A stretch of DNA of 14,107 bases from a virus (Duplodnaviria > Heunggongvirae > Uroviricota > Caudoviricetes), in the IMG/VR virus record IMGVR_UViG_2563366830_000016; one strand, written 5' to 3'. The translations under genes and the position numbers were made by a program. Positions 1,369 to 13,863 of this stretch are shown here, piece by piece (the first letter of the stretch is position 1; every line of letters starts with the position of its first letter). Under the pieces are notes generated by a model. It was not told the DNA's origin. It searched no databases and saw only the letters and a list, made by a program, of their open reading frames with translations.

Positions 1369-1444
1369 GCCGATATAGCTCAGTTGGTAGAGCAGCGCAT
1401 TCGTAATGCGAAGGTCGTAGGTTCGACTCCTATTATCGGCACCA
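1369..1444 (+). tRNA. thrW: tRNA-Thr (anticodon CGU)
   Basis: 76-nt sequence GCCGATATAGCTCAGTTGGTAGAGC...GGTTCGACTCCTATTATCGGCACCA with cloverleaf-compatible arms, anticodon loop TTCGTAA (CGT) and encoded 3' CCA; recognised as enterobacterial thrW, a known integration target for P4-like and P22-like elements. Confidence 0.95.
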
Positions 1445-3899: not shown

Positions 3900-4733
3900 A
3901 TGAACATCGAAAAAAGCAGATTAATTTCTGAGGCCGCCCCTCATCTGAACGCCTCTCTGGGCACAATTAACGGTAATGAATTTGCCGCAATTGTCCCGGT
4001 TATTCCAGGTCACATCGGTGGGCGTGAAACCAATATTGTTAGCGCAAAAGCGTTACACAAAGCGTTGGGCGTGGGAAAAGACTTCTCTACATGGATCACT
4101 GATCGCATCTCTGAATATGACTTCACCATTGGGCACGATTACTCAGTCCATAAAACAATTTCCCCAAATTTGGGGAAAAGCCCGAATGGCACGGCTTACA
4201 GCAAGATTAAGCAGTCTGGCAGACCCGGCAAAGACTATCTGTTAAGTGTCGGAATGGCGAAAGAGCTGGCAATGATCGAACGCAATGATCAGGGTCGCGC
4301 TATCCGTCGTTATTTCATCCAGTGCGAGGAAGAATTACAGCGTAGCGTGCCTGAAATCGCCGCCCGCTATCGTCGCCAGCTAAAAGCCCGTATCAGTGCC
4401 GCAAACAACTTTAAGCCAATGTGCGATGCGCTGAATATGGCCCGTGCCGAGCAGGGGAAAACGACGCAGCAACACCACTACACAAACGAGAGCAATATGA
4501 TTTCTCGTATCGTTCTTGGAGGGCTAACTGCTAAGCAGTGGGCGCGGATAAATGGCTATTCTGGCGAACCTCGCGACCATATGAACGCAGAACAGCTTGA
4601 GCACCTCTCATATCTCGAAAGCACCAATATCACGTTAATTGATATGGGCATGGAATATGAGCAGCGCAAAGGAGAACTCACCCGCCTGTCGCAACGCTGG
4701 CTCGCCAAGCGTCTGGAGGCGGTCCATGTTTAA
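3900..4733 (+). CDS. Putative phage regulatory/antirepressor-like protein (Rha/KilAC-like region)
   Basis: 277-aa ORF; GGAGA RBS 7 nt upstream; segment DYLLSVGMAKELAMIERNDQGRAIRRYFIQCEEEL resembles the conserved core of phage antirepressor (KilAC/Rha-type) domains. Family assignment is from memory of the motif, not a search. Confidence 0.55.
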   Translation: MNIEKSRLISEAAPHLNASLGTINGNEFAAIVPVIPGHIGGRETNIVSAKALHKALGVGKDFSTWITDRISEYDFTIGHDYSVHKTISPNLGKSPNGTAYSKIKQSGRPGKDYLLSVGMAKELAMIERNDQGRAIRRYFIQCEEELQRSVPEIAARYRRQLKARISAANNFKPMCDALNMARAEQGKTTQQHHYTNESNMISRIVLGGLTAKQWARINGYSGEPRDHMNAEQLEHLSYLESTNITLIDMGMEYEQRKGELTRLSQRWLAKRLEAVHV

Positions 4734-4908
4734 GCCGACAGGAACACCACAACCTCAAAAACGCTACAAAGATGCCCACGGAGCACTCGTTACTGTCGAA
4801 AGCGTGTCTCACAACCGAGTGACGTTTTATCGCGACGGGTATCAATCGCCATGCGTACAACCGCTGGCGCGCTTCATGAAGGAGTTCGCGGAGGTTAACA
4901 AATGCTAA
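4726..4908 (+). CDS. Hypothetical small protein (60 aa)
   Basis: ATG at 4726 preceded by GGAGG (8 nt spacing) and overlapping the stop of the upstream gene; in frame with track ORF 4639-4908. No family recognised. Confidence 0.5.
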   Translation: MFKPTGTPQPQKRYKDAHGALVTVESVSHNRVTFYRDGYQSPCVQPLARFMKEFAEVNKC

Positions 4909-5339
4909 CCGTCCAGAAGAAGATATTTTCACTGACTGCTATGTCGCAAAAATCCAGCAATATGACAGCAAAGTCTGGCATTAATACAGCAGATACAAGC
5001 AAAGCTTATCATTTTATGGTGGTAGGAGCGGATGCCTTAACTATGTCAGAAATTACGGTCGATGGTGTTAGCGTTGAGAAGGTCAGCGGCTGCGCCAGAG
5101 AATTTCTGGTCGTAGATGACCTGTTCTGCTCGCGTAGTGACTCCACAAAAATCTTCGTCCGCACGCGCGACGTTAACGAAATGAGCGCGATGTACTGTGC
5201 CTCTGGTTCTTCCAATAGTGAGTTTTCGGAGTCCATAAAAAAGAGCTTGCCGTTATGCGGCAACACGGTTTATGGTTATAAGGCACCTCATAAAACGGGT
5301 GCCGGGATTAGGACCCCGCAGGCAATCGAGGCGATACAT

Positions 5340-5360
5340 GACGCGCCAGCGTCTTTTTTT
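5340..5360 (+). terminator. Candidate intrinsic terminator / attenuator: GACGC-gcca-GCGTC hairpin followed by T7
   Basis: Read directly: 5-bp GC-rich stem, 4-nt loop, then TTTTTTT at 5354-5360. Short stem, so moderate-to-low confidence. Lies inside the gap with no convincing gene (4909-5524). Confidence 0.35.
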
Positions 5361-5524
5361 GTATCGGCGCACACGCACACCTTATCAATGGTGGGCTGTA
5401 TGGGGCTGACTTCGGTCAGGCTGGTTTCCTTGATTGCCAGTAGTCCTAACCCTGTACAGTCCACCGCCAGCGAGCTTAGGACCTCCGGCGGTGGCTATAA
5501 ACCATCAATCAAGGAGGCTGCCAC

Positions 5525-5719
5525 ATGCTGGCTACTACCCCTACCCAAAAACCGCAATTTATCTGGATTATCGCCGCAGTTCGCCGCGATTGCCCGACAA
5601 TTACCGCCAAAATTCATCATATTGCTGCCGAGTCTGAACGCGATGCTCGCCGTTCTCTGGTGCGCGATCACATCTGCTTTTTTGCTGGTCGTATCCGCAT
5701 GGAGGTGGCACATGATTAA
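5525..5719 (+). CDS. Hypothetical small protein (64 aa); first gene of the coupled operon leading to the primase
   Basis: Strong RBS AAGGAGG at 5511-5517, 7 nt before ATG; host-like codon usage (CTG, CGC, GCC, ATC); its stop overlaps the next gene's start. Confidence 0.7.
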   Translation: MLATTPTQKPQFIWIIAAVRRDCPTITAKIHHIAAESERDARRSLVRDHICFFAGRIRMEVAHD

Positions 5720-5930
5720 AACCTACGATGTGCATATGGATCCCCTCGAACGCACAAGCCAGATCATCACACTGACAGAAGTGATTAACGACATTCTGGT
5801 GAGCAACTCTCCCTCACGAGACGAAAGACTGAAGGCGTTACTCGCGATATTGGATCTCGCCGTTCGTGACGTTCATTTCCTGCTGGAAGGTGGACAAATG
5901 CCATGCAAAACGGGGGCAACCAATGAATAA
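5712..5930 (+). CDS. Hypothetical small protein (72 aa)
   Basis: ATG at 5712 with GGAGGTG 4-10 nt upstream; overlaps the upstream stop; forms the 3' part of track ORF 4902-5930. Confidence 0.6.
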   Translation: MIKTYDVHMDPLERTSQIITLTEVINDILVSNSPSRDERLKALLAILDLAVRDVHFLLEGGQMPCKTGATNE

Positions 5931-7542: not shown

Positions 7543-7906
7543 AAATGTAGAAATGGCGCTTAGCTCCGCAATCGGAGAGCAGGTGGCAAAGATTGCTGGT
7601 GCTGTGTGGATTCATAACCTTCATTCTACTGGTGAAGAGAAAATGGCAATTCAGACGCCAGAGGGACGCACCATTACTACATCTCTGAAGCCGTCAGATG
7701 TTTGTGATCTGATTTGCGCATTCATGTACCCAGCAATGAGGACTGTCCACGGCGATAAGTGGAAACTTGCGACAACCGCTGAATTTGATATGTGGCTAAA
7801 CAATGATGGCATGCTGACTGATTACGGAATAACCAAGTGGCAGATGCTAGTTAGCCATATCGCAAACGCTATAGACCACGTGGGGTACGGTGATGCGAAA
7901 CATTGA
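7535..7906 (+). CDS. Hypothetical protein (123 aa)
   Basis: GGGAGG RBS 6 nt upstream; 3' end overlaps the primase start by 14-17 nt. Confidence 0.7.
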   Translation: MRENVEMALSSAIGEQVAKIAGAVWIHNLHSTGEEKMAIQTPEGRTITTSLKPSDVCDLICAFMYPAMRTVHGDKWKLATTAEFDMWLNNDGMLTDYGITKWQMLVSHIANAIDHVGYGDAKH

Positions 7907-10649
7907 TCTTATCCGTCAGGTTATCAGTGCGTCTGAAAACAACTGGCCTCATGTGCTGGGCTGCCTGAACATAAATGTCCCTGACTCTCCGCGCCGTCAT
8001 GCTCCCTGCCCTGCATGTGGGGGCAAAGATCGATTCCGGTTCGATGACAACGGGCGCGGTAGCTTCATCTGTAATCAGTGCGGCGCTGGTGATGGGCTGG
8101 ATTTAATTAAACGCGTAAATAACTGCGACACAACAGAGGCGGCGCTTCTTGCCGCTGATGTTCTGGGTATTGATTACCGGACAACGGAAACACCAGAAGC
8201 CACCAGCCAGAAACGGGAACAACTGGAAACCGAGCGCCAGCGACGCGAACAGGAGCGCCTGAAAAGGGCAGAGAAGGACGAACAACAAAGACGGGATACG
8301 TTTTCCCGTCAGTTTGATGACATGCGCAGAAAGGCTGTAAACGGCAAATCTGATTATCTGGTTGCGAAAGGGGTAGGTGATTTTACATTCCCCGTGTTGC
8401 CCGATGGATCTCTGTTGCTGGCGCTGGTGGATAAATCCGGCGCAGTAACAGCAGCACAGACTATTACCTCACATGGTGAAAAAAGACTCCTGACAGGTTC
8501 AGCAAAGCGAGGGGCATATCACGCCATAAACGCACCAGAAACAACACAGAGCATCTTAATCGCAGAAGGGCTGGCAACGGCATTATCTGCCCATTTAATG
8601 CGTCCAGAGGCGCTGACAGTGGCGGCGATTGATGCCGGGAACCTGTTATATGTCGCCCAGGTACTGCGGGATAAATTTCCTTCAGCACAAATCATCATTG
8701 CTGCGGATAACGACCACAGCGAAGGAAGACAAAACACGGGGAGAATAGCAGCAGAAAAAGCAGCTTTATCTGTTTCTGGATGGGTGGCATTACCCCCGAC
8801 AGATCACAAAGCAGACTGGAATGATTACCACCAAAAACACGGCATTAAATGCGCCACAGAAGCGTTCAATAAGTCAATGTACCAACCACAGGGTAATGGC
8901 GTGAAACAGGAGCCACAGACCATTGAGGGAAGCGATTTTAAGGTTATGGATACCGATCCACTGAAACCAAGAATAGAAAGCCGCGAGGATGGTATTTATT
9001 GGGTATCTCCGAGAGCTGACAGCCAGAGTGGAGAAATCATCAATAACGAAAGCTGGTTATGTTCTCCGTTAAGCGTTATCGGTACTGGCAGAGACGATAA
9101 AGACCAGTATCTCATTCTTCGCTGGCTGTCGTTTGGTTCTGAAACGCCGACAACCGCTGCCATTCCACTGGCTGATATTGGTGAACGTGAAGGATGGCGC
9201 ACACTTAAAGCTGGTGGGGTAAATGTCACGACCAAAAGCAGCCTCAGAGCAATACTGGCAGACTGGCTACAACGCAGTGGCTCTCGTGAATTGTGGCGTG
9301 TTGCTCATGCCACTGGCTGGCAATGCGGAGCGTACATCATGCCTGATGGGGAAATCATCGGAACACCTGAAAATCCTGTGCTGTTCAGCGGGAGAAGCTC
9401 AGCCGCAGCCGGATATACCGTCTCAGGGAGCGCGAAAAGCTGGCGTGATAACGTGGCGCGTCTGGCCTTTGGTAACTATTCAATGATGACCGGGATCGGC
9501 GCAGCACTGGCAGCGCCATTGATTGGGCTGGTGGGCGCTGACGGGTTCGGCATTCATTTCTATGAGCAGTCGAGCGCAGGTAAGACCACCACGGCAAACG
9601 TGGCGAGCAGCTTATACGGCAACCCTGATTTACTGCGGCTGACGTGGTACGGAACCGCGCTGGGGCTGGCAAATGAGGCCGCCGCCCACAATGACGGACT
9701 AATGCCGCTTGATGAAGTTGGTCAGGGCGCTGATCCTGTCAGCGTTTCACAGTCTGCCTATGCGTTATTTAACGGTGTAGGGAAACTGCAAGGCGCTAAA
9801 GATGGTGGAAACCGGGATCTAAAACGCTGGCGTACAGTGGCAATCAGCACCGGAGAAATGGATTTAGAAACATTTATCGCTACTTCCGGGCGAAAAACCA
9901 AAGCCGGGCAACTGGTGCGACTGCTGAATATTCCGTTGAGTAAAGCAGTACGCTTTCACGATTACCAGAACGGAAAACAGCACGCAGACGCACTGAAAGA
10001 CGCTTACCAGCATCACCACGGCGCGTCCGGGCGTGAGTGGATTAAATGGCTGGCAGACCACCAGCAACAGGCTATTAAAACCGTTCGTGACTGCGAAAGC
10101 AGATGGAGAAGCCTGATCCCATCCGATTATGGTGAGCAGGTTCACCGTGTAGCCGCGCGATTTGCCATTCTGGAGGCCGCATTGTTGTTAGGCGAGGTTG
10201 TAACAGGCTGGGATGCTCAGACATGCCGTGATGCGATACAGCACAGCTATAACGCATGGTTGCGCGAGTTCGGCACAGGTAACAAAGAGCATCAGCAGAT
10301 TATTGAACAAACGGAGGCATTTCTTAATGCCTATGGGCTTAGCCGTTTTGCACCATTTCCATACAGCCCGGCAGATTTGCCCATCAAAGATTTAGCCGGA
10401 TACCGTCAGCGTGGAGAACATGACGAAAGCCCAATGATTTTCTACACATTCCCGGCCACATTTGAAAAGGAGATCGCATGTGGTTTCAACGCAAAACAGT
10501 TTGCTGAAGTGTTGAAAAAAGCCGGGATGCTAACCCCACCAAACAGCGGTCGTGGATACCAAAGAAAATCACCACGTATTCAGGGACGACAAATAAACGT
10601 TTATGTACTCAATTACCAGCCAGGAGATTATAACTCATCTGAAGAATGA
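7890..10649 (+). CDS. Satellite/phage-type DNA primase-helicase (primase Zn-ribbon + TOPRIM + P-loop NTPase, P4 alpha-like)
   Basis: 919-aa ORF. N-terminal zinc-ribbon CPACGG...FICNQCG typical of primase-helicase Zn-binding domains; charged linker (EQLETERQRREQERLKRAEKDEQQRR); TOPRIM-like acidic motif (IAADNDHSEGRQ); Walker A (SSAGKTTT). Track start is GTG 7890; ATG at 7893 is the alternative. Confidence 0.9.
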   Translation: MMRNIDLIRQVISASENNWPHVLGCLNINVPDSPRRHAPCPACGGKDRFRFDDNGRGSFICNQCGAGDGLDLIKRVNNCDTTEAALLAADVLGIDYRTTETPEATSQKREQLETERQRREQERLKRAEKDEQQRRDTFSRQFDDMRRKAVNGKSDYLVAKGVGDFTFPVLPDGSLLLALVDKSGAVTAAQTITSHGEKRLLTGSAKRGAYHAINAPETTQSILIAEGLATALSAHLMRPEALTVAAIDAGNLLYVAQVLRDKFPSAQIIIAADNDHSEGRQNTGRIAAEKAALSVSGWVALPPTDHKADWNDYHQKHGIKCATEAFNKSMYQPQGNGVKQEPQTIEGSDFKVMDTDPLKPRIESREDGIYWVSPRADSQSGEIINNESWLCSPLSVIGTGRDDKDQYLILRWLSFGSETPTTAAIPLADIGEREGWRTLKAGGVNVTTKSSLRAILADWLQRSGSRELWRVAHATGWQCGAYIMPDGEIIGTPENPVLFSGRSSAAAGYTVSGSAKSWRDNVARLAFGNYSMMTGIGAALAAPLIGLVGADGFGIHFYEQSSAGKTTTANVASSLYGNPDLLRLTWYGTALGLANEAAAHNDGLMPLDEVGQGADPVSVSQSAYALFNGVGKLQGAKDGGNRDLKRWRTVAISTGEMDLETFIATSGRKTKAGQLVRLLNIPLSKAVRFHDYQNGKQHADALKDAYQHHHGASGREWIKWLADHQQQAIKTVRDCESRWRSLIPSDYGEQVHRVAARFAILEAALLLGEVVTGWDAQTCRDAIQHSYNAWLREFGTGNKEHQQIIEQTEAFLNAYGLSRFAPFPYSPADLPIKDLAGYRQRGEHDESPMIFYTFPATFEKEIACGFNAKQFAEVLKKAGMLTPPNSGRGYQRKSPRIQGRQINVYVLNYQPGDYNSSEE

Positions 10650-11411: not shown

Positions 11412-11873
11412 ATGGAACTAAAATTTATTGATAACCCTGTGCGATTACAGGCCTTTCTTAACGAGCCAGGCAATACCGAAAATATTGTTGAGCCGGGGCA
11501 CACGTACTACATCAAGCCTGATGCGGTATATCTCGGCATCTACGAAGGATTAGTGCTGGCTGGCGTTCATGAAGTGCGTAACTTCTGGCATAGCGTTGTT
11601 GAATGCCATGCGGTGTACGACCCCGGATTCCGTGGTGAATATGCACTGCAAGGACATCGATTATTCTGCAAATGGCTTCTCGAAAACTCACCATTCCTTA
11701 ACAGCATCACTATGGTTCCTGACACCACGAAATACGGACGGGCAATTATCCGTTTGCTTGGCGCTACCCGTGTTGGTCACCTTGATGATGCTTATATCAG
11801 ATGTGGTAAACCCGTCGGCGTAACGCTTTATCAGTTAACTCGGCAACAATATAAGGAATTCAGCGAATGTTAA
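11412..11873 (+). CDS. Hypothetical protein (153 aa), possibly P22 gp14-like; co-transcribed with downstream ejection-protein-like genes
   Basis: 153-aa ORF; its stop overlaps the next gene's start (ATGTTAA). Position and size match the gene preceding gp7 in P22-like clusters; the homology is recalled, not verified. Confidence 0.6.
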   Translation: MELKFIDNPVRLQAFLNEPGNTENIVEPGHTYYIKPDAVYLGIYEGLVLAGVHEVRNFWHSVVECHAVYDPGFRGEYALQGHRLFCKWLLENSPFLNSITMVPDTTKYGRAIIRLLGATRVGHLDDAYIRCGKPVGVTLYQLTRQQYKEFSEC

Positions 11874-12544
11874 TTACCCATATAGCTCATAAACATCTCA
11901 ATCGTGCCGTATACGAAAAAGGCGGTGATGGTGGTGCCTCTAAAGCTCAGGCGAAGGCCCAGCAGCAGGCAATTGATTTGCAGCGCGAGCAGTGGAATAC
12001 GGTGATGAATAATCTCAAGCCGTATGCAGAAGTCGGATTGCCTGCTTTACAACAACTACAAGGACTGATGACTCTGGAAGGGCAGAATAAAGCCGCGAAT
12101 GATTTCTTTGGTTCTGGTTTATATAAAACACAGGCAGATCAGGCCCGTTATCAGAACCTTGTCTCAGCAGAAACTACCGGGGGGCTTGGCTCAACAGCTA
12201 CCAGTAACCAGTTATCTTCCATTGCGCCCATGCTTTATAACAATTGGCTTAGTGGGCAAATGCAAAATTATGGAAACCTGCTAAATGTCGGGATGAATGC
12301 GGCATCAGGGCAGGCAACGGCAGGGCAAAACTACGCCAATAATACCGGACAACTCTTGCAGGGGCTTGGCGCTATTCGTGCAGGTCAGGCGCAGCAGCCA
12401 TCCAGTCTTGCGCGTGGTATTGGTGGGGCAGCATCAGGCGCTTTAGCGGGTGCGCAACTTGGTTCCGTTGTTCCTGGAATAGGAACTGCGGCCGGCGCTA
12501 TTGGTGGTGGGCTTATTGGTCTTGTTGGGGGGCTTGGATTCTAA
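11867..12544 (+). CDS. P22 gp7-like DNA-transfer (ejection) protein candidate, Gln/Gly/Ala-rich with glycine-zipper hydrophobic C-terminus
   Basis: 225-aa ORF, AAGGA RBS; low-complexity Q/G/A-rich composition and C-terminal GIGTAAGAIGGGLIGLVGGLGF segment. Size and composition match podovirus ejection protein gp7 (about 229 aa). Assignment by composition and synteny only. Confidence 0.55.
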   Translation: MLITHIAHKHLNRAVYEKGGDGGASKAQAKAQQQAIDLQREQWNTVMNNLKPYAEVGLPALQQLQGLMTLEGQNKAANDFFGSGLYKTQADQARYQNLVSAETTGGLGSTATSNQLSSIAPMLYNNWLSGQMQNYGNLLNVGMNAASGQATAGQNYANNTGQLLQGLGAIRAGQAQQPSSLARGIGGAASGALAGAQLGSVVPGIGTAAGAIGGGLIGLVGGLGF

Positions 12545-13863
12545 TGGCGACATGGCAACTTGGCGGGCTGCCTAGCATGGCACCGCAAAATGATAATGCT
12601 CCTCGTTCTTCCGTTCCTCAGCCTGTGCAGTATCAGCAGCAGCCAAACGTAGGTTTAATGGCGCTACAGGGGCTAAGAGGCGTTGCTGAGATTAATCAGC
12701 AGGCGCAAATTTCCCAGCAGCTAAAAGAATATCAGGCACGGTTGGGTAGTGCGGTAGCTAATAATGATCGTGTTGGCGTGCAGAAGTTAATGGCCCAGTA
12801 TCCCCAGTTTATGGCTGATTCTCAAAAACAGATGGGATTCATTGATGCTGAGCAAAATCGGCAGACCGCTGACGCTGCCATGAATCTGCGTCTTGCGTCA
12901 CAAACTGGAGATCCACTGACCATGCAGAAGGCCATTCAGCAGGCAAATCCAGTATTACAGCGATTTGGTCTTCCTGCTGAAGAGGTTTATCAGTCTTGGC
13001 AGAATGACCCACAGGAATTCAACAGAATCACTGACCTCATCCACCTCCATGCTGATCCAAATAGTTACTTTAGTGTTCAAGAGAAGCAGCAAGGGCAGAG
13101 TATTGCACAGCAGAACGCAGATACATCTGCATATAATGCTCAGGTTAATGCGGAGCAGGGTAATCGGCGGCTCGATATGGAGCAGTTCAAAGTCCTATCC
13201 GATAACCAACTACGCACGAGAGAAATGGTTCTGAAAGCACGACTTGGACGTGCTCAAAATGACATCGAGAGAGACAAGCTCAATGCTGAACTGAGCAAGG
13301 TACAGCAGGCGAAAGTGGAGAAGATGAACGATAAAATTAATACTGTTGCAGGTAATATCGACTCCTTGAACTCTGCGCTTGAAGTGGGTCATGAACTGGC
13401 GGGAATTGTAGGGAAACATCCTTCGGCCGTTACCCGTTCGCAGAACTATAACCCCCTGACGCTGGGGTTTGGATTCCTCCCTGATGTAGCAGAAGACACA
13501 CGAAGCCTACGCGCCAAAGCTGATGAATACAACCTAAAGGTTATTCTGCCTAGCCTAAAAGGTACTTTTGGCTCTAACCCAACCGAAGGGGAAAGGGCTG
13601 CCCTTATGCAATCTCAAAATGGCATTAAGTCAGCAACCAGCAATGAGGCATTTTTGCGAGAGTTGAATAAAGCGCAGGACGTAATTATTCGAATGCAGAA
13701 ACGACAGATTGCCGGGCTCGGTATTCCTGTAACCAAATCTAAGGACGAAGAAACTGATACCAAAATGCTGTTGCAGGATCCTTCACTGGTTAAGGATTAT
13801 GTGACCGCACATGGCTATCTGCCGGAAAGTTACTATCAGGCAAAACTTAAGGGATGGCAATGA
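12544..13863 (+). CDS. P22 gp20-like DNA-transfer (ejection) protein candidate, Gln-rich coiled-coil protein
   Basis: 439-aa ORF starting at TAATG overlap with the upstream gene; Q-rich, helical/coiled-coil character; size and position match gp20 (about 470 aa) of P22-like phages. Assignment is inference. Confidence 0.55.
   Translation: MATWQLGGLPSMAPQNDNAPRSSVPQPVQYQQQPNVGLMALQGLRGVAEINQQAQISQQLKEYQARLGSAVANNDRVGVQKLMAQYPQFMADSQKQMGFIDAEQNRQTADAAMNLRLASQTGDPLTMQKAIQQANPVLQRFGLPAEEVYQSWQNDPQEFNRITDLIHLHADPNSYFSVQEKQQGQSIAQQNADTSAYNAQVNAEQGNRRLDMEQFKVLSDNQLRTREMVLKARLGRAQNDIERDKLNAELSKVQQAKVEKMNDKINTVAGNIDSLNSALEVGHELAGIVGKHPSAVTRSQNYNPLTLGFGFLPDVAEDTRSLRAKADEYNLKVILPSLKGTFGSNPTEGERAALMQSQNGIKSATSNEAFLRELNKAQDVIIRMQKRQIAGLGIPVTKSKDEETDTKMLLQDPSLVKDYVTAHGYLPESYYQAKLKGWQ

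Follow-up and report, generated by a model that had tools for sequence, protein, structure and literature searches.

The stretch of viral DNA analysed here (the window; 14,107 nucleotides of the IMG/VR Caudoviricetes record IMGVR_UViG_2563366830_000016) contains, between a DUF4222 gene and a gene for a TOPRIM/DUF927 primase, a long open reading frame (ORF) in which two structured RNAs, their pairing sites and an intrinsic terminator are embedded (Table 1). An earlier note, made from the sequence alone, had drawn attention to positions 4909–5524 within this frame, had suggested that they form a P4-like regulatory leader or noncoding RNA placed before the replication operon, and had named a diverged or decaying protein gene as the alternative. 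The Rfam matches, the co-varying target sites and the P4 Kil homologue described below bear out the first suggestion and strengthen it, as the relationship to P4 is one of homology and not merely of analogy; with regard to homology and anatomy it is near certain that 5247–5524 is an RNA immunity module homologous to PLE-seqA-CI-seqC of P4 and to c4 of P1. RNA immunity as a principle was established in P4 and P1 as early as the 1990s, and the cassette is an ordinary member of this known system that has been mislabelled in genome annotation.

Two structured RNAs and their pairing sites

We scanned the window with Rfam at curated thresholds and obtained two adjacent matches on the plus strand, an isrK-type leader and, downstream of it, a C4-type antisense RNA. 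The hairpin and run of seven T residues to which the earlier note had pointed are present and prove to be the terminator of the full-length isrK match, although as a bare pattern terminator-like sites are not above chance (2 against 1.0 expected in shuffles). A further model, Rfam c4-a1b1, was rejected (14.8 bits against 46.7); the isrK model covers the upstream targets better.

The two RNAs and the sequence that follows them are connected by complementarity: the loop b′ of C4 is complementary to both b1 and b2, and the junction a′ to both a1, which sits in the loop of the second hairpin of the leader fold, and a2. Predicted duplex energies range overall from −9.5 to −19.7 kcal/mol, with −16.3 and −15.5 kcal/mol for the leader sites a1/b1 with C4 and −19.7 for the b′–b2 duplex, and b2 contains the Shine-Dalgarno sequence AAGGAGG (5511–5517) of the icd/kil-like gene that follows. 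Folding of the transcript 5283–5540 (258 nt) gave a z-score of −3.85 and a structure in which the leader is paired with the C4 region.

A scan of genomes for the terminator pattern, with one genome per species, yielded 120 loci, mostly from Enterobacterales, and a C4 homologue lay within 330 nt on the same strand in 99 of the 109 usable matches. The 98 distinct cassettes hold 28 variants of a′ and 56 of b′; nevertheless, at least 7 contiguous base pairs form between cognate sites in 95–98% of them for each of the four interactions, as against 16–32% for non-cognate combinations. A comparison of structure and covariance across homologous cassettes, which the earlier note had proposed as a check, came out in favour of a structured RNA: 99% of pair cells in the C4 helices of 98 distinct homologues are canonical, compared with 33–48% when partners are shifted, and compensatory double changes at 16 of 27 pairs support the outer stem and two inner hairpins. 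Because the helices compensate and the cognate sites co-vary, selection at the cassette acts on RNA structure and on RNA–RNA pairing.

Upstream of the leader lies a candidate promoter whose hexamers are identical in all eight sequences of an alignment comprising the window and seven Escherichia coli homologues of the island that carries it. The −10 box ends 6 nt 5′ of the isrK start, which would place the transcription start near 5283, and the promoter aligns with TTGCCT-18-TATAGT of P4, at an equal distance from the isrK start, as well as with a promoter-like pair in a Shiga toxin (Stx) phage, so that it may be active. The earlier note had instead sought a promoter 3′ of the hairpin, and this part of it did not hold up: TTGCCA (5434–5439) and TACAGT (5455–5460), separated by a 15-nt spacer, lie inside C4 helices, and the hexamers named, including TATAAA (5496–5501), are neither conserved in other immunity types nor found by the promoter scan. 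A hairpin, TTGCCG-TTATG-CGGCAA (5247–5263), overlaps the putative −35 box and is followed on the minus strand by a T-run, and together these resemble a terminator for transcripts running in the antisense direction. Between the terminator and C4, 38 extra nucleotides with a TATAAT are present in four of the aligned homologues and in the island copy of E. coli MP1 but are missing from the window type; the insertion point is window position 5383/5384, and a 1-nt insertion at 5347 brings the total to 39 nt, so that the long ORF stays in frame in those types. Transcription of the antisense RNA in those types may have a second promoter in the extra TATAAT-like box just 5′ of C4.

Table 1. Features of the window, with positions counted from its first nucleotide
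Feature	Position	Strand	Details and basis
C4 / P4 CI-type antisense RNA	5384–5471	+	Rfam RF01695, 80.2 bits (threshold 45), model 1–87 of 87
isrK / P4 seqA-type leader RNA	5283–5359	+	Rfam RF01394, 63 bits (threshold 50), E=9e-12, model 1–77 of 77
Intrinsic terminator	5340–5360	+	GACGC-GCCA-GCGTC stem 5340–5353 and T7 5354–5360; last helix and U-run of the isrK match
Leader target site a1	5308–5314	+	TTAGGAC; complementarity to C4
Leader target site b1	5323–5331	+	CAATCGAGG; complementarity to C4
C4 recognition element, loop b′	5428–5436	+	CCTTGATTG
C4 recognition element, junction a′	5443–5449	+	GTCCTAA
Downstream target a2	5476–5482	+	TTAGGAC; complementarity
Downstream target b2	5506–5517	+	CAATCAAGGAGG; complementarity
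Candidate constitutive internal promoter	5247–5276	+	−35 TTGCCG 5247–5252, 18 nt, −10 TATGGT 5271–5276; putative P4 PLE equivalent
Long eta-like ORF, 342 aa, ATG start	4902–5930	+	ORF list; named 'ash family protein' by PGAP
Icd / P4 Kil-like gene, 64 aa	5525–5719	+	NF033153; first gene under putative C4 control
72-aa gene	5712–5930	+	own GGAGG; in frame with the long ORF
Inverted P22 gp3-type small-terminase fragment, from pac site, 116 bp	5050–5165	−	candidate packaging signal
pac core	5135–5156	−	GAAGATTTTTGTGGAGTCACTA
proA	start of window		window begins within the gene
tRNA-Thr(CGT)	1369–1444		
att core	1428–1437		TCCTATTATC
AlpA gene	3253		
AntA/AntB gene	3900–4733		
TOPRIM/DUF927 primase gene	7890–10649		
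Late zone	11412–13863		homologues of P22 gp14, gp7 and gp20

The long open frame and the genes at its end

The earlier note had described 4909–5524 as fully open in one frame, and the 342-aa ORF as a whole has no internal stop: within 4902–5711 frame 0 has no stop codon and the other two frames have 11 and 17, and none of 20,000 dinucleotide-preserving shuffles of this segment was free of stops (for 4902–5282 alone the stop-free fraction was 0.0002). Frame 0 is likewise open through the cassette in 19 of 19 distinct island variants, which have two spacer lengths (a 1 + 38-nt length difference). An ATG at the 5′ end of C4 (5388, in frame 0, at the position of orf45 in Gifsy-1) is conserved in 97 of the 98 cassettes, and in these 97 its frame is open for a median of 88 codons in the forward direction, against 14–27 in the other frames, and, read backwards, it stays open as far as the extracted sequence goes in 76% of cases (11–14% for the other frames). 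Amino-acid constraint is weak by comparison: the ratio of nonsynonymous to synonymous differences (pN/pS) of 4908–5282 is 0.50 in frame 0, with 0.68 and 1.08 in the other two frames, as opposed to 0.14 in the neighbouring DUF4222 gene, and the substitutions in 5283–5524 among the aligned islands are spread evenly over the codon positions (39/32/36). The frame is non-random and is kept open with weak constraint on its product. The genes from alpA to the primase overlap or abut, and the ATG at 4902 overlaps the TAA (4906–4908) of the DUF4222 gene; because of this arrangement, an untranslated gap of ~800 nt would break the chain of ORFs.

One could suppose that the region is a decaying gene or a non-functional spacer, that the hairpin and T7 run are an ordinary terminator at the end of an operon, and that the frame is open by chance. 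Residues 1–123 have no protein family match in Pfam, NCBIfam or PHROG profile searches, the content of the region is mosaic and includes an inverted terminase fragment, and terminator-like patterns occur at chance density, all of which would fit; however, the absence of stop-free shuffles, the openness of the frame in every island variant examined, the full-length covariance-model matches and the conservation of the cassette across many Enterobacterales genera make this explanation extremely improbable, and the earlier note's alternative of a decaying gene falls with it.

A conventional protein gene deserves closer attention. Under this explanation the 342-aa 'Ash family protein', as it is named by the Prokaryotic Genome Annotation Pipeline (PGAP), would act as a protein, for example as a regulator, and the RNA features would be secondary. 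Besides the annotation itself, it can appeal to the Pfam and PHROG matches, several of the latter bearing the name 'transcriptional repressor', to the strongly non-random frame with its translational coupling to the upstream gene, and to a pN/pS that is lower in frame 0 than in the other frames. These matches are, however, confined to residues ~106–220, which is where the RNA cassette lies; Pfam Phage_ASH (PF10554) aligns with residues 124–219, or nt 5271–5558 (54.3 bits, threshold 26), and because this domain maps onto the RNA cassette we rejected it as proof of a protein gene. The 'repressor' names go back to a P4 ORF that shares its sequence in part with the CI RNA and bears the annotation 'cI gene product ... 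transcriptional repressor'. Furthermore, the helices of the cassette change in a compensatory manner while substitutions are even over codon positions, the N-terminal 127 residues belong to no family and include the inverted terminase fragment, which is conservative in the terminase frame, and a real Icd/Kil gene overlaps in another frame. Taken together, these points leave a protein gene as an unlikely account of the region.

The corresponding locus of P4 clarifies what the long ORF is. The isrK and C4 models match P4 at 8615–8692 and 8420–8507 on the minus strand; both matches fall between ORF88 and the ORF annotated 'cI gene product', where the seqA leader and the CI RNA of P4 are located. 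A P4 ORF of 214 codons (8812–8168) begins 5′ of the leader, contains both RNAs and has Kil as its last part, and Phage_ASH matches its residues 37–161 (8330–8704 in P4 locus L007; 82.2 bits); this ORF is eta. In the window, ORF 4902–5930 likewise begins before the candidate internal promoter, and the leader, the C4 RNA with its targets and, in another frame, the icd/kil-like gene all fall within it; judged from this correspondence in sequence and layout it is the counterpart of eta, rather than an accidental frame or a gene in decay. PF10554 and several 'transcriptional repressor' PHROGs are largely translations of the seqA/CI RNA locus (P4 eta). PF10554 has been used as a marker of epsilon in finding P4-like satellites (PMC8628076); we rejected its identification with P4 epsilon, which matches PF25738.

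Two genes lie at the 3′ end of the frame, and both had been recognised in the earlier note. The gene starting at 5525 in a different frame, behind the AAGGAGG, matches NCBIfam phage_ICD_like (NF033153) with 70.4 bits against a cut-off of 25, and its product shows 42% identity (E=5e-11) to P4 Kil, which is encoded by the final 65 codons of the long ORF in P4. It stands in the +2 frame of the long ORF, with 53-nt rather than 54-nt spacing. PGAP annotates the Icd-like gene in LA3, FORC_031 and MP1, in all three of which the long ORF is annotated as a pseudogene, whereas 17 of the 20 best E. coli matches listed have only the long 'ash family protein', without an Icd/Kil-like gene; in most E. coli genomes this PGAP name hides two regulatory RNAs and an Icd/Kil-like gene. 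The gene at 5712–5930 forms the terminal, in-frame part of the long ORF and holds the nested position that kil has in P4. It had been proposed as a separate gene, and PGAP annotates it as such in a strain whose long ORF has a 1-nt deletion; its product gave no family match in Pfam, NCBIfam or PHROG. In two viral contigs of the same island family (L141 and L146), the long ORF (283 and 288 aa) shares its frame with the Icd/Kil-like gene, a P4-like nested layout which means that both frame arrangements coexist in one island family.

Probable control of the downstream operon

The arrangement of these parts is best explained by repression of the P4/P1 type. In the quiescent island the constitutive promoter would start transcripts near 5283, most of which would end at the hairpin and T7 terminator and give a leader RNA of ~77 nt, while transcripts that read through would be processed into a C4/CI-like RNA of ~88 nt. 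The b′ loop and a′ junction of this RNA would then pair with b2 and a2 on read-through transcripts and mask the Shine-Dalgarno sequence of the icd/kil-like gene; left untranslated, such a transcript would terminate early and the operon up to the primase would stay silent. Pairing of C4 with a1/b1 in the leader may aid termination, as in P4, or alternatively the short leader may titrate C4, as IsrK does in Gifsy-1. Given the homology and the co-varying sites, we consider repression by this route probable.

Immunity would have to be lifted when a helper phage arrives. The alpA gene of the related island EcCIMP1 is induced by helper phage, according to PMC11773190, and we envisage that a helper would turn on the upstream alpA promoter here as well. 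Ribosomes would then follow the unbroken chain of overlapping ORFs, ORF 4902–5930 included, and by translating through the terminator, the C4 RNA and the sites that pair with it they would render the transcripts insensitive to immunity. In P4, as summarised from Forti 1999 in PMC10111431, transcripts from a constitutive promoter inside eta terminate early and are the source of CI RNA, and Kil is a shortened form of Eta. Translation of the complete Eta, which is coupled to the alpA homologue, takes place only on transcripts of a late promoter further upstream, and it prevents termination. By analogy with P4, we lean towards such a bypass in the island. The earlier note had held that translation of the 4902 frame would refute an RNA mechanism; this does not follow, since in P4, by the same source (PMC10111431), the frame is translated and RNA immunity is real, so that evidence of translation would leave the RNA mechanism standing.

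Activation of the IsrK type may be put in place of repression as the main logic of the cassette: the leader would open a closed read-through structure in trans, with translation from ATG 5388 and of the coupled downstream genes as the outcome. The leader does match the isrK model, ATG 5388 is conserved and lies within the open frame, and the minimum-energy fold of the long transcript pairs the leader with C4, much like 'structure A' of Gifsy-1 (PMC4825925). On the other hand, the context is that of a P4-like satellite (AlpA, a Kil-like gene, a primase) and not an antirepressor operon, and b2 covers the Kil-like Shine-Dalgarno sequence directly, as in P1/P4 repression. As the main logic, activation is therefore a tentative alternative to repression, and the two modes are not mutually exclusive.

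Several observations weigh against P4/P1-type immunity with bypass by translation. Folded in isolation, the leader does not exceed shuffled sequences in stability (z=−0.84), the stem of its terminator is just 5 bp long, and the candidate promoter has 8 of 12 consensus matches and was not called by the promoter scan. As the window type is without the 38-nt spacer and its TATAAT, its supply of C4 would depend on read-through of the terminator. The nested-gene logic of P4 is not exactly transferable, since here the kil-like gene and the long ORF are read in different frames, and the pN/pS of 0.50 in 4908–5282 means that the protein product possibly has some role.

The carrier island and known systems

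The window starts in proA and runs through an integrase, AlpA, AntA/AntB, DUF4222, the cassette and the primase to homologues of P22 gp14, gp7 and gp20. This is the order of Gram-negative phage-inducible chromosomal islands (PICIs), namely integrase, AlpA, an antirepressor-type zone, primase and late genes; a zone scheme of integration, Bro, replication and late has been described for these elements, and Rfam C4 and isrK match several of them (PMC10111431). By its sequence and gene order the window is an EcCIMP1-like PICI, a phage satellite. In the late zone, the gp14 homologue (head morphogenesis, phrog_651) is accompanied by homologues of the ejection proteins gp7 and gp20, the DNA of the gp14-like gene is 81% identical to that of phage Kapi1, and a satellite with its own ejection proteins is unusual. 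According to PMC11773190, the Lederbergvirus Kapi1 mobilises the PICI EcCIMP1, though very rarely, by a packaging mechanism that the paper leaves open, and 'Ash family protein' is among the conserved genes; the terms 'small RNA', 'Icd' and 'pac site' did not occur in term searches of that paper. The kind of system at the cassette is well known and recognised by curated models; to judge from these searches, the EcCIMP1 paper had not described its member as such. For this experimentally studied PICI our results offer a specific immunity mechanism that can be tested, together with a candidate site for packaging.

The copy of the island in MP1 (L155) is 97.8–98.2% identical to the window except in the immunity cassette, which is of another type. 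Between near-identical islands the only hypervariable stretch is 5300–5510, and its flanks have few variable positions. There are at least five immunity types, and within them a′/a1/a2 change together, as do b′/b1/b2; one type, for example, has TTCGCAG / CTGCGAA / TTCGCAG in place of TTAGGAC / GTCCTAA / TTAGGAC. These comparisons indicate that the cassette is a hypervariable module, apparently swappable between conserved flanks, and that RNA immunity types have been exchanged naturally between otherwise near-identical islands. Over 5284–5523 the window cassette is 92% identical to cassettes of Stx-converting phages and has the same a and b recognition cores. Such sharing was found for the window type only; for the L012- and L011-type cassettes no full-length close phage match was present among the matches listed. 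With its recognition sequences shared in this way, the island and an Stx prophage could cross-regulate each other at the RNA level, and RNA cross-immunity between them is conceivable.

The inverted terminase fragment lies in the 5′ half of the region. In reverse orientation, 5050–5156 is 92.5% identical to nt 4–110 of P22, annotated as small terminase gene 3 and the pac site, and the fragment matches nt 268–374 of the 162-aa terS in P22-like prophages. The P22 pac consensus is AAGATTTATCTG, and P22 cuts within ~120 bp around pac (PMC10996546). The pac core of the window, AAGATTTTTGTG, agrees with the P22 consensus at 10 of 12 positions and has no exact match to the published pseudo-pac pattern; it is also in this core that most departures from P22-type terS are concentrated. 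Three phage contigs (L138, L145 and L147) have a full-length terS with exactly the core variant of the window, and here homology reaches 5165. Where the island copies differ from one another, the changes are of the conservative kind when read in the terminase frame (pN/pS 0.36, pS 0.17), much as between natural terS alleles. Kapi1 was rejected as the source of the fragment: its TerS belongs to a different family, and its DNA gave no match. A limited literature search gave nothing relevant on the capture of pac sites by E. coli PICIs, which is weak evidence of absence.

Tentatively, we suggest a joint reading in which the 5′ half holds the packaging signal of the island and the cassette also allows cross-regulation between island and prophage through RNA. 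If it were true, EcCIMP1-like islands would be helped efficiently by phages of the Lederbergvirus type that have a matching terS allele and not by Kapi1, and the very low transduction by Kapi1 would be explained by its unrelated terminase. The terminase fragment and the sharing of cassettes with Stx phages are the only parts of our results that might exceed the known picture.

Among the closest known systems, P4 has the same order of parts: a promoter (in the window a candidate), an isrK-model leader with terminator, a C4-model RNA and a target where ribosomes would bind to translate a Kil homologue, a long ORF spanning all of these with a central Phage_ASH match, and an AlpA/Vis-type gene upstream and a primase downstream. 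The window differs from P4 in that 24 nt rather than ~107 nt separate the terminator from C4, the Kil-like gene stands in the +2 frame and the 72-aa gene, instead, is the in-frame end of the ORF, and the N-terminal part of the ORF is unrelated to eta and holds the P22-type terminase fragment; the recognition sequences differ as well. As in immI of P1/P7, an antisense RNA carries a′ and b′ elements that match an upstream and a downstream site, the latter at an Icd-type ribosome-binding site, but satellite replication genes and not an antirepressor follow Icd, and the AntA/AntB gene of the window lies upstream. The c4/icd/ant mechanism of P1 was reportedly worked out by Citron and Schuster in 1990 and by Biere et al. 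in 1992.

The IsrK/orf45 (STnc1160)/anrP locus of Gifsy-1 in Salmonella likewise has a leader small RNA with a terminator, read-through into a structured region with which the leader pairs, and a small ORF, translated in Gifsy-1, from a conserved ATG in that region (PMC4825925); there the short RNA activates an antirepressor, whereas in the window the frame runs on, 181 codons, past the start of the next gene. The isrK-C4 cassettes of Stx phages (e.g., LC710660, in which both RNAs are annotated) share the 92% identity and the recognition cores with the window, but precede a 215-aa hypothetical protein and differ in promoter sequence. Finally, EcCIMP1 of E. coli MP1 occupies the same tRNA-Thr site next to proA, with the same core and the same gene order, and differs from the window in having another immunity type and a spacer that is 39 nt longer.

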